IMG/VR virus record: IMGVR_UViG_3300021082_000060
Location: 1-41,629 of that record
DNA: 41,629 nt
Source of the DNA: a virus
Lineage: Duplodnaviria; Caudoviricetes
Strand: one strand, 5' to 3'
Shown here: positions 1 through 40,101 of the stretch, one piece after another
How the letters are laid out: each line of letters opens with the position of its first letter
Position numbering within the stretch: position 1 is the first letter of the stretch
Notes under the pieces: generated by a model
What the model saw: the letters and a program-made list of their open reading frames with translations, nothing else
What the model was told of the DNA's origin: nothing
Database searches by the model: none
Position numbers and translations under genes: made by a program

Positions 1-137
1 GGCACGTTGGACCGGAAGGCGGCTACCGATTAGAGGGCCGTCTCGGCCCCGTTCCCGACAGCCTGCGGCTTGAGGGTATCGACGACGGCCCAGACAAGGT
101 CGGGTAAGGCCGAAGCCCCACCCGTCCAAGCCTGCCC
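1..137. repeat. Terminal direct repeat (copy 1); assembly overlap of a circular or circularly permuted genome
   Basis: 1-137 is identical to 41492-41629 except GACCGG here vs GACCCGG at the end. Confidence 0.93.
98..127 (-). terminator. cUUCGg-capped hairpin closing the pentamer-array transcript
   Basis: Minus strand GGGUGGGGC-UUCG-GCCUUACCC. The G-U pairs and the UUCG tetraloop only work on the minus strand. It lies just after the last array unit. Confidence 0.7.
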
Positions 138-754
138 CGTCAGGACTCGCCCTGGCGCGCCAGGACTAGCCGTGCCACGTCATGCCTGCCCCGCCTCGCC
201 TGCCATGCCTCGCCTCGTCCGGCCATGCCAAGCCCGGCCAAGCCACGCCGGGCCACGCCTGCCTCGCCATGCCCAGCCGGGCCGCGCCGGTCCATGCCTC
301 GTCTTGCCTGCCAAGCCAAGCCGTGCCTCGACAGGCCGTGCCCGGCCCCGTCCTGCCACGCCTTGCCTGCCCCGCCATGCCATGCCGCGCCATGCCGAGC
401 CAACCCCTGCCACGCCTGCCCTGCCCGGCCTTGCCCCACCTCGCCAGAACTGGCCCCGCCCAGCCCCGCCGCGCCTGCCCAGCCTTGCCGTGACGCGCCT
501 ATCCGGACCAAGCCCAGCCCCGCCTCGCCTGCCGTGCCGCGCCCAGGCTGCCCCCGCCCCGCCGCGCCGTGCCTAACCGGGCCACGCCTGCCCTGCCCTG
601 CCTTGCCGCGCCGAGCCCAACCGTGCCGGGCCAAGCCGGGCCTGCCATGCCAGGTCTGGCCCTGCCCCGTCTCGCCTCGCCGCGCCTCGCCGTGCCTGCC
701 CTGCCAGGCCCTGCCGAGCCCGGCCAAGCCGGGCCCTGCCATGCCAAGCCTGCC
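133..754 (-). ncRNA. Array of putative gapped-code guide RNAs: GGCA followed by 9-11 GGY-NN-type pentamers (VIPR-like vrRNA array)
   Basis: Strict 5-nt period (NNGCC on +) reset by a 4-nt TGCC at 133,187,201,260,309,368,417,476,530,589,643,697,751. There are 11 full units of 49-59 nt and one 2-pentamer unit. The array starts 3 nt after the accessory gene stop. Confidence 0.88.
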
Positions 755-757
755 ATG

Positions 758-1234
758 TCACCGCTTGGGCGGTGTCTTCCCGCCGCCCTTGGGACGCCCA
801 GGCTTGCGCCTGGGGGCGGGCGGCGGCTCCTCCCGTACCTGGGTCACGGCGACCCAGACGCGGTCAAGCTCTTGAAGCTCCTCGTACTTCGCCTGCATTC
901 GCTCCAGTTCGTGCAGCGCGTCCTGCAACAAAACCGTGCGCAGATCAGGCGTGTTCATTACCGATTCGATCCGGCGATACCCGCCACCCTCCACCCGATC
1001 GACCGACAAGCTGACGTATTGCCGCGTGAGGGTCTGGGGATTGACGAAAATCGCCACCAGCTGGCGGACCTGCTGGATGCGGTAGGCCTCGGCTGCAATC
1101 GAGTCGTCCCATTCCAACTCGGCATACAGCGCCGAACTGGGATGCGCGCGCGCCCACTCCACCGCAGCCTTCGGTTGGATCAGGCCGCCGCGCTCCAGCC
1201 GCAACAGCTCGCTGGCGACGTTCTCCTTGTTCAT
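758..1234 (-). CDS. Accessory protein of the RAMP/pentamer-array module (158 aa, MNKENVASELLRLERGG...)
   Basis: ATG at 1234 overlaps the RAMP gene stop (ATGA) and has a GGAG RBS. Contains EWDDSIAAEAYRIQQVRQL and a basic C-terminal tail (PRRKPGRPK). Confidence 0.8.
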   Translation of the reverse strand: MNKENVASELLRLERGGLIQPKAAVEWARAHPSSALYAELEWDDSIAAEAYRIQQVRQLVAIFVNPQTLTRQYVSLSVDRVEGGGYRRIESVMNTPDLRTVLLQDALHELERMQAKYEELQELDRVWVAVTQVREEPPPAPRRKPGRPKGGGKTPPKR

Positions 1235-1953
1235 ACGCTCCTGATCTCCATTAGTTCGTCGGTCACCACCTCGAAACGACCAAACCCAAGGCCGTTGGAG
1301 TTGGGGGAGTTGGGCCGGCCTTCGCCGATGCCGACCTGCTTGCCGGCGCGGGCCATCAAATTGAGCAAATCGATTGCCGAGAACTGATCGACGTCCCATT
1401 CGATCGACACCTGGGCCGACCACTCACGCCACATCGGGCGCCAACGGATGTCGGCCACGCCGCTGTCATTTCTAACTGGTGCTTTGTAGGGCTGCGGCGT
1501 GCCGATGATCTTCACCAACTGGCTGCCATCCTCGCTGTCGGTGCCGTCGGCGATGACGAATACCGACAGTTTTGCGTGGGTCATCCTGAAGCCGACGAGG
1601 CGGCAGGCGTCGATGATGGCGTTGCGAAAGCTGGGTGCCGGGATGCCGCACCAGCCCTCGGTGGAGATGTGCATAGCGTCCCGATACAGCTGCTCGAAAT
1701 CCTTCGGCTGGCGCACCTTGCGGCCACGGCTCTGCTGTCCGGCGCGCTGGGTGGCCTCCATGATCCGTTGCTGTTTGGCACTGAATGCATGTTGGACATA
1801 GGGGCTGAGGCCCCGGATGTTGAATCTCGCCACGCCGAGGTTGGGTGGCGTGATCTTGAGTGCCGGCACTGCGGGTGCGGCGGGCTTGTTTATCTCGGTG
1901 GTTTGGGTGCTGGCCTGTTTGCGGACAGGTGGGATACGCTTCGGTGCAGCCAT
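1231..1953 (-). CDS. Stand-alone Cas7-like RAMP protein (Vipr-like effector)
   Basis: RAMP hallmarks: N-terminal beta strand (FNIRGLSP), GIPAPSFRNAIIDAC (cf. IPGSSLKG motif) and C-terminal Gly-rich loop GIGEGRPNSPNSNGLGFGRFEV. No other cas genes are present. Confidence 0.85.
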   Translation of the reverse strand: MAAPKRIPPVRKQASTQTTEINKPAAPAVPALKITPPNLGVARFNIRGLSPYVQHAFSAKQQRIMEATQRAGQQSRGRKVRQPKDFEQLYRDAMHISTEGWCGIPAPSFRNAIIDACRLVGFRMTHAKLSVFVIADGTDSEDGSQLVKIIGTPQPYKAPVRNDSGVADIRWRPMWREWSAQVSIEWDVDQFSAIDLLNLMARAGKQVGIGEGRPNSPNSNGLGFGRFEVVTDELMEIRSV

Positions 1954-4032: not shown

Positions 4033-4215
4033 CAAACTGAACTGAATAACTAGGGGGTCGAGTAGCGCGGGGGGAGGGGGGCTGTTACCATTCTATGGTA
4101 TATATCAGTTATTCAGTTATTCAGTTAGTTATATAGGTATATCAACGGGATGGAGGACTAACCGGAGACTAACCGAGAAGTGACTGAGTGTCGGTTGGAA
4201 CGTAACTGACATATT
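4033..4215. other. AT-rich repeat region, candidate replication origin
   Basis: AACTGAATAACT (4040-4051) is inverted relative to overlapping AGTTATTCAGTT copies (4107-4126); CTAACCG direct repeats near 4158-4175; directly after the helicase gene. Confidence 0.55.
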
Positions 4216-4978: not shown

Positions 4979-5395
4979 ATGGGCGAAACTGTTCCCGATG
5001 CGCGTGCTAGCACTTCAGTTGCCCGTAGGCCGGGTCAGTTGTGGCAAAAAGGCCAGAGCGGAAACCCGAAGGGCAGGCCTCGCTCGCCCTACGATCTGCC
5101 TGCGCTCTGTCGTGAGCACACTGCTGAGGCCGTCAGGCGGCTGGTGCAGATCATGCGTGCCGAGGACGACGGGCGCGCTCTGGCAGCCATCCAGCAGCTG
5201 CTGGATCGTGGTTGGGGTCGACCAATTACCCCGATCGTCGACGAGACCGAGGGGACCAGTTTGACGTTGTTGCATTTGATTGCGGCGCGGCGTGTTGCCG
5301 AAACGTTGCAAGCCGTGGCGGAGGGGAAAACCGAGAACGAATCGGGCGACTCCTCCAAGCCTGTGGTCGATTATAGTGTTCCTGCCCTGGAATAG
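4979..5395 (+). CDS. terS: Terminase small subunit-like protein (DUF5681-type)
   Basis: WQKGQSGNPKGRP and LLDRGWGRP motifs typical of this TerS-like family. Confidence 0.7.
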   Translation: MGETVPDARASTSVARRPGQLWQKGQSGNPKGRPRSPYDLPALCREHTAEAVRRLVQIMRAEDDGRALAAIQQLLDRGWGRPITPIVDETEGTSLTLLHLIAARRVAETLQAVAEGKTENESGDSSKPVVDYSVPALE

Positions 5396-5396
5396 T

Positions 5397-5510
5397 CGTT
5401 AGAACAAACGCGGCGTGGCACGACGGGGCCTGTCCCGTACAGGCCCGGCCGGGCTCGTCAGGGCAGGGCAGGCATGACATGGCACAGGGGCGGCATCCTG
5501 CCGCCGCCCC
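5397..5510 (+). ncRNA. Solitary GGY-NN guide unit 1
   Basis: Leader CGTTAGAACAAACGC, 11 pentamers at 5412-5466, GGCA at 5467-5470, 3 more pentamers, then a GGGGCGGC/GCCGCCCC hairpin at 5487-5510. Confidence 0.8.
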
Positions 5511-18946: not shown

Positions 18947-19047
18947 GGGGACTGGATTGCCCCAGTCCCCACCTTGCCTGCCGAGCCACGACGGGCCCTG
19001 CCCCGCCCTGTCATGCCACGCCTAGCCACGCCGTCTTTGTTTTAGCG
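18947..19047 (-). ncRNA. Solitary GGY-NN guide unit 2
   Basis: Leader CGCTAAAACAAAGAC, 10 pentamers at 19032-18983, GGCA at 18982-18979, 2 more pentamers, then a GGGGACTGG/CCAGTCCCC hairpin at 18947-18970. Confidence 0.8.
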
Positions 19048-39793: not shown

Positions 39794-39864
39794 AATCTCC
39801 TTGCAGGTCGGCTTGGCAGAGCTTAACTAGGTAAAGTCTTATGCGAATGCAAGGAGAAAACAAC

Positions 39865-40101
39865 GTGCGATACGTTTACAAGAGCCCGCGTATGGAGCGC
39901 GAGCGGGACGCGGTGCTAGGGCCTCTGCTGACCCAGCGCGGTATGGTCACGTTCCTGGCGCGTGAATTGGGCATCTCCAAAGCCGCGGTAGCGCAGTGGT
40001 ACAGCATTCCCGACATGCATATCGCGGCGATCAGCAAGCTATTGGACATCCCGCAATACCAACTGCGCCAGCAGCCGCGCCGTCCGAAGGTGGCGGCGTG
40101 A
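39865..40101 (+). CDS. Cro-like HTH regulator
   Basis: AAGGAG RBS before GTG at 39865; FLARELGISKAAVAQWYSIP. Confidence 0.8.
   Translation: MRYVYKSPRMERERDAVLGPLLTQRGMVTFLARELGISKAAVAQWYSIPDMHIAAISKLLDIPQYQLRQQPRRPKVAA

Follow-up and report, generated by a model that had tools for sequence, protein, structure and literature searches.

What is encoded by the 133-754 region of this phage, in which a five-nucleotide period is reset again and again by the four letters GGCA, and what do these resets mark? The window, by which we mean the whole stretch of DNA analysed, is a complete virus record of 41.6 kb with portal, capsid, terminase, Erf, and Gam genes; its closest isolate by portal is a Sinorhizobium phage (38%). 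We argue that the region is most probably a staggered VIPR guide array in which each GGCA opens a unit, and that the units likely guide Vipr to silence the genes of co-infecting sister phages. The array and its surroundings contain the following features.

133..754, minus strand: staggered vrRNA array, 12 units opened by GGCA marks
754-751, 700-697, 646-643, 592-589, 533-530, 479-476, 420-417, 371-368, 312-309, 263-260, 204-201, and 190-187, minus strand: unit-opening GGCA marks, from the minus-strand parse of the array
136-133, minus strand: closing GGCA mark after unit 12, from a local parse
101..126, minus strand: G+C-rich hairpin directly after the last mark (z -2.0), its start common to sister phages
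758..1234, minus strand: accessory gene (vap), 158 aa, helical, with weak winged-helix-like matches only
1231..1953, minus strand: vipr, 240 aa, predicted RAMP fold with G-loop, from sequence, profile, and model matches

The array was parsed by scoring the GGY period only, and shift tokens of 3, 4, 6, or 7 nt were allowed with any letters. All 12 internal register shifts were GGCA, compared with 26% of the 118 ordinary pentamers that start in this way (p ~1e-7). The blocks in transcript order comprised 10, 10, 10, 11, 10, 11, 9, 11, 9, 11, 2, and 10 pentamers. A preliminary description of this DNA had placed 13 GGCA/TGCC delimiters between blocks of 9-11 pentamers and one of 2; the register-free parse and the local parse reproduced these positions exactly, and the block list was the same when reversed into transcript order. 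The triplet, proposed to be mostly GGC with variants, was counted as GGC 87, GAC 5, GGT 4, GGG 2, GGA 2, GTC 2, GCC 1, and GTT 1. The information content by position over 104 array pentamers was 2.0, 1.46, 1.45, 0.04, and 0.01 bits, and all 16 dinucleotides were present at NN, in agreement with the view that the triplet is conserved and NN variable. Eleven of the 12 units hold 9-11 repeats, which falls within the ~9-16 GGY/NN repeats per guide of VIPR RNA. Contigs of runs X2, X3, and X5 span the array in pieces only, and joints in a repeat are unreliable.

Several open frames of 75-216 aa cross the array, as might be expected of low-complexity coding sequence or of a degenerate microsatellite. 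However, stop-poor GGC repeats are open by default, the period is five with NN information near zero, and the units match other genes in codon phase with gaps. Taken mod 3, the lengths of the units come to 0, 1, or 2, so that every frame occurs, and the units are gained and lost singly. Both points argue that the array is not protein-coding, and the earlier expectation that it is not translated under protein-level selection holds. We give the coding or microsatellite reading practically no weight.

SUSP1 Vipr (36pp) was the sole significant PDB sequence match of the 240-aa protein (E 1.9e-4; profile 1e-5), with homology detectable over ~47 residues only. Its structure model (pLDDT 84.7) matched Csm3/Cmr RAMPs (Z 11.5, rmsd 3.6, 149 aligned), and the G-rich loop was invariant in the alignment of Vipr relatives. 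The protein is thus predicted to be a stand-alone, Vipr-related RAMP homolog with an RRM core, a thumb, and a G-loop. The vap gene overlaps vipr and ends 3 bases before the array starts, both genes being on the minus strand. Its product gave no fold match at E 0.001 or better, and its Atlas neighbours were unnamed; Pfam held no family for vipr or vap, and PHROGs gave unknown-function families only. The scan of 55 ORFs found no cas1 or cas2, and the locus has the minimal VIPR content, that is, vipr and an accessory gene with neither a CRISPR array nor cas genes. Neither a sigma-70-like promoter nor a U-tailed terminator was found at the array, and the hairpin at 101..126 is likely the 3' end of the array transcript. 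From the 3-base spacing and this 3' hairpin, vipr, vap, and the array would likely form one minus-strand transcript. The Rfam search returned no hammerhead, and its sole result was a below-threshold symR match at 1948-2023, where a long hairpin (z -2.6) lies in the vipr leader between divergent genes.

VIPR, which was published in 2026, is related to CRISPR; it is described as a minimal system that can be programmed to bind DNA and is a proposed ancestor of CRISPR RAMPs. Its GGY/NN guides are read with a one-base skip (10.64898/2026.04.26.720920). The legend of Fig. S18 in that paper describes 'staggered arrays', in which consecutive vrRNAs overlap by 1 nt, so that each vrRNA's end signals where its successor begins. 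The window array shows this 1-nt overlap, and it resembles the published staggered arrays in combining vipr, one accessory gene, and a GGY/NN array in a phage. Judged by its sequence, the window locus is a VIPR locus with staggered architecture. It differs from the published ones in that the junction is given (NGCAG/GGC) and the boundaries are backed by targets. The text of 10.64898/2026.04.26.720920 and of its PMC supplement, taken apart from the figures, contains neither a junction sequence nor 'GGCA', and that text gives no target analysis and no sRNA-seq for the staggered architecture. Among the papers listed by our literature search, this one alone contains 'staggered vrRNA', and 'staggered' and 'GGCA' are absent from the accessible portions of texts 720927, 759431, and 760802. 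The accessible VIPR passages do not deal with the division of tail-less staggered arrays into guides or with the origin of new ones. The architecture itself is already known; what appears new here is the in-silico support for its boundaries and for the targeting of kin.

The type II systems of SUSP1 and a P. fulva prophage are like the window in having a RAMP-fold Vipr, 9-11 repeats per guide, and a 1-nt skip at the wobble position, and also in using either strand and in directing some guides against other VIPR systems. However, each SUSP1 guide has a structured 3' tail, whereas the window units abut without tails and a single hairpin stands at the array end. By this absence of conserved structured tails, we class the locus as not type II. 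CRISPR arrays consist of repeats and contiguous spacers and operate with Cas6/Cas7. The window array works like a CRISPR array in that it holds several guides between fixed boundaries, turns them over unit by unit, and is paired with a RAMP effector, but it has neither repeats nor contiguous spacers, no cas1/cas2 among the 55 scanned ORFs, and a boundary of only 4 nt. Having neither the repeat-spacer array nor the contiguous pairing of class 1 CRISPR-Cas, it is not a CRISPR member.

The role of the marks was examined by treating 112 multi-unit arrays as continuous dinucleotide chains, blind to the marks, and matching them with the 1-nt skip against both strands of 5.9 Mb with arrays masked; 15 duplicate loci and antisense array re-parses were removed. 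At a score of at least 17, 9 of 11 matches had their start in the first pentamer of a unit, which in 7 cases followed an internal mark, while 2 of the 11 ran across a mark. The corresponding numbers in 61 shuffles were 21 and 155 of 199 matches. At a score of 16, for which ~16 chance matches are expected, 14 of 30 began at pentamer 1 and 11 crossed. We also compared eight sister arrays whose Vipr proteins are 92-98% identical. Shared units lay at offset 0 in 80 of 83 pairs, which are not independent since the arrays are related. Unit order was mostly conserved, while single units were gained, lost, or duplicated at the marks, a turnover that the preliminary description had raised. Differences within shared units lay in pentamers 6-11 in 21 of 25 cases. 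The units concerned are as follows.

205..642, minus strand: units 3-10, of which units 3, 4, 6, 8, and 10 recur whole in sister arrays
191..200, minus strand: unit 11, a 2-pentamer remnant; sister arrays hold similar stubs of 1-6 pentamers

With target matches starting at the mark and sisters sharing whole units, the proposal that GGCA junctions are unit boundaries is borne out, and this new in-silico evidence supports the marks as functional guide boundaries. Unit gain, loss, and duplication exactly at the marks, along with the short stubs, would also be produced if GGCA did nothing in the RNA and were a mere scar or crossover point left where units had been inserted or deleted. Target matches that begin at the mark rather than crossing it, and the same terminal motif in arrays and in stand-alone units, argue against this idea, which we consider very improbable.

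The grammar extends across the clade. Our clade set consisted of the window plus 90 loci at which a Vipr relative is encoded, several loci being present more than once, and 88 of the 91 sequences carried an array. Among 97 distinct arrays, a tally that retained a few antisense re-parses, 687 of 715 shifts were of four bases and 603 of these 687 were NGCA; block sizes peaked at 9-10 pentamers. The triplet after an NGCA junction was GGC in 95% of cases versus 65% inside units, and 37 of 47 prokaryote-genome loci had at least two such marks. Since 45 of the 97 arrays end in NGCAG, and in the window a hairpin follows the last mark, the mark makes most sense as a final pentamer, GGCAG, that would share its last G with the unit after it as the first G there. 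The divergent Vipr of G012 is accompanied by a staggered array (L278 1914-2287) with the junction GGCG followed by GTC.

Other variation was seen among relatives. The L045 and L410 arrays also use other junctions, and a related phage (L323 17598-19126) has long GGY/NN arrays with few or 6-base shifts and a different grammar. Related arrays use GGC in 35-53% of triplets before an NN starting with C versus 67-78% before one starting with a purine, so that triplet choice by the next dinucleotide perhaps reflects avoidance of self-pairing. Cyanophage Cy-LDV1 (BK059895; L257 4686-5625) has a Vipr 54% identical and two unannotated GGCA-marked arrays.

The fixed junction also bears on whether the guides are released from the array. 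The same VIPR guides could act on uncut RNA, with the one-base register shift alone ending each Vipr filament like beads on a string. According to the accessible part of the SUSP1 study, one Vipr subunit binds each repeat and the filament resolves from a 3' pseudoknot (10.64898/2026.04.26.720927), and with one subunit per 5-nt repeat, a 4-nt step would physically interrupt the filament. Between the units there is neither a ribozyme nor a per-unit tail, one shared G cannot belong to both products, and the sRNA-seq of the VIPR paper confirmed ribozyme and single arrays, not staggered ones (10.64898/2026.04.26.720920). However, any 4-mer would shift the register, yet the junction is fixed in sequence; stand-alone units too close with GGCA ahead of a hairpin, and the divergent Vipr has a fixed junction of its own. 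We therefore regard the uncut version as rather unlikely.

We then considered what the units of this putative guide array match. The array units for which matches were obtained, and the own copy of one target site, are listed here.

647..696, minus strand: unit 2, 19/20 to vipr of sisters with the first 9 pentamers perfect; own vipr 16/20
1514..1542, minus strand: own copy of the unit-2 target site, within vipr
701..750, minus strand: unit 1, possible match to the vap gene with the wobble skipped (sister L119 17/20, most sisters 16/20, own 15/20)
137..186, minus strand: unit 12, possible match to the own Cro-like gene at 39943 (17/20) with the wobble skipped

Matches were found with the 1-nt skip on the wobble position; with no skip, or with a skip of 2 or 3, window units scored no more than 17. 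The skipped base was codon position 3 in all 12 gene placements, which were made after match discovery. The vipr gene of sisters L001, where the site lies at 5409, and L002 was matched by unit 2 from the first pentamer onward, pairing codon positions 1-2 and skipping the wobble, and its score of 19 was reached by 3 of 7353 shuffles in 5.9 Mb. Relative to sister G001, the unit-2 footprint shows 3 differences among its 20 paired positions, versus 6 among 388 in the rest of the vipr core. Both vipr alleles were present in run X2, and the five differences listed on that contig all lay in this footprint. A second self match of unit 2 (17/20 at 2197) was treated as chance.

The match of unit 1 to vap is weak, not significant alone, and only suggestive. 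Unit 12 may target the own Cro-like helix-turn-helix gene, which lies at 39841-40101 on the plus strand. Units 3-10, that is, 8 of the 11 full units, had no convincing target in the 5.1 Mb examined. The earlier claim of a gapped target of ~27-33 bp for each unit therefore stands for unit 2 and for several units of relatives, is suggestive for units 1 and 12, and found no target behind it for units 3-10.

Guides of relatives also matched the window phage. The first unit of L098 matched the window's vipr at 18/18, and the last unit of L097 matched the window's ORF 39996 at 20/20. Among the relatives themselves, unit 7 of L001 matched L150 at 22/24. First and second units were most often aimed at vipr or vap, with matches perfect over 8 pentamers in 3 of 212, compared with 1 of 473 later units and 0 of 3425 shuffles. 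Close-clade guides were perfect over the first 8 pentamers in 7 of 78 cases versus 0-1 in five shuffles. In a fixed-unit scan of 484 clade units, the distribution of best matches was near that of the controls except in the tail (at least 90%: 7 versus 1-3). Where a guide matches a sister allele better than its own, the system likely silences close relatives.

Two further units stand outside the array, each with GGCA and a hairpin; the distance to the phage's own version of the target is 0.2 kb for the first and 1.3 kb for the second.

5412..5485, plus strand: stand-alone unit, 21/22 to the sister allele of the adjoining ORF 4979-5395; own allele (5229) 20/22
18959..19032, minus strand: stand-alone unit, 20/20 to sister alleles of the gene after capsid; own allele (20355) 18/20

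The sister allele matched by the first unit is that of G001, and its two self mismatches fall in pentamers 2 and 4. The orthologous unit of G001 (L249 9812-9885) differs at those two dinucleotides and at two more, and it matches the window allele at 20/22 and its own allele at 17/22. Each of these two guides fits the other's allele at two polymorphic positions. Contigs over 5150-5260 were many, short, and divergent, with no clear sister allele among them. L096 (6275-6358) and G008 have a different guide at apparently the same place as this unit. The second stand-alone unit matched 21 sister loci, repeats included, at 20/20.

As a separate observation, the guides at 18959-19032 and at L133 308-377, before the capsid gene, have their first three dinucleotides and their tail in common; the latter matches the capsid gene at 18/18, and the former matches the gene after capsid at 20/20. 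A shared start and tail with different targets is a hint of how guides get reprogrammed. A third stand-alone guide, present in L136 (5285-5344) and L137 (8719-8778) and not in the window, matches the scaffold gene of others at 21/24 and its own at 17/24.

The closeness of own targets, and own alleles that match the guides at 80-91%, keep self-regulation a candidate. The guides would then regulate own genes (vipr, vap, Cro-like, and a late gene) by imperfect pairing, and the sister matches would be a by-product of shared ancestry. Of 1000 shuffles, none attained the self match of 20/22 or that of 18/20, and one attained that of 17/20; this last self match, that of unit 12, is the best match of that unit. 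Against this, every perfect or near-perfect match is to a non-self allele, paired-position differences cluster in the unit-2 footprint, and the stand-alone guides of the window and G001 are reciprocal in their fit. We find self-regulation improbable.

The P. fulva clade and types III and V have no reported self match of at least 80% (10.64898/2026.04.26.720920). The window is unlike them in its own-allele matches, because its targets are sister alleles. Solo vrRNAs of F5 satellites and VIPR-null phages, in the accessible part of their description, are aimed at the vipr of relatives with wobble alignment, and the self scores of solo guides against other vrRNAs are below the non-self ones (10.64898/2026.10.15.759431). 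The window guides share these three properties as far as that part goes. However, those solos reside in elements without vipr, whereas the stand-alone units here are in a vipr-positive genome beside the target gene. The same accessible part describes solo targets in which codon positions 1-2 are nearly invariant, while the window alleles differ there, partly by synonymous Ser/Leu/Arg swaps.

Under the staggered guide-array reading, Vipr would coat the RNA with one subunit per pentamer, the GGY being buried and NN pairing with DNA so that every third base is skipped; coating and the skip rule have been demonstrated for SUSP1 in print, and the skip rule is in silico here. The closing GGCAG would share its last G with the next unit, and this one-base register shift would bound each footprint of 26-32 bp. 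The RNA is probably cut or trimmed at the junction into guides of 50-60 nt. The complex may then block transcription of the matched sister gene, silencing by binding being taken from the accessible parts of the VIPR papers. Two or more mismatches in the 5' half of the guide would spare the own allele. Since own alleles match above the 80% cut-off that the VIPR paper used for calling targets (10.64898/2026.04.26.720920), this protection by mismatch is an assumption of ours. A point against this reading is that variation and mismatches collect at the 3' end of the units here, whereas the SUSP1 filament resolves from its 3' pseudoknot. Comparison of the arrays shows that whole units are exchanged at the marks, and the two guides of the stand-alone pair differ in individual NN positions in step with the allele of the rival.

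The locus combines a fixed junction, guides whose targets occur naturally as matched and as mismatched alleles, and two guides that fit each other's alleles. Boundary, processing, mismatch tolerance, and guide evolution are thus all testable on a single cassette of 2 kb. Separating guides by 4 nt would also allow them to be multiplexed compactly.

A broader picture may tentatively be drawn, which as a whole we hold possible rather than probable. Staggered VIPR would be a kin-discrimination weapon among near-identical phages, the junction would be a clade-specific processing signal read by Vipr, and specificity would change through NN point changes and whole-unit exchange with no integrase. Since wobble changes give no escape, targets would escape by synonymous first- and second-position swaps of Ser, Leu, and Arg codons, leaving a genome-wide recoding footprint. 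Among the apparent target escapes, several are synonymous and affect codon positions 1-2. Of 286 serines conserved between the window and G001 (L247-L249; 90% protein identity), 46 have changed codon family, at a four-fold divergence of 0.29. In three control phage pairs, with no Vipr hit in the five of six records checked, the switches were 0/95, 1/375, and 23/307 at four-fold divergences of 0.30, 0.14, and 0.35, respectively. A related group (L147-L190) had equally high switch rates among the 41 pairs listed; none of 8 near-complete genomes examined had a Vipr hit, though G012 of that capsid-related set has one. Other VIPR pairs were mixed, some lacking serine swaps, and a literature search for a serine-swap signature returned nothing relevant. 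These results suggest that the link of serine swaps to VIPR held only partly.

Some minor features were seen elsewhere. A short perfect 8-base tandem repeat at 4105-4127 lies in an A+T-richer stretch after the primase/helicase gene and is possibly an origin. Either assembly error or recoding may lie behind two further features: several window tail genes contain overlapping long frames, and the capsid gene of sister G001 (C1 7985-9066) has a two-piece match near its start.
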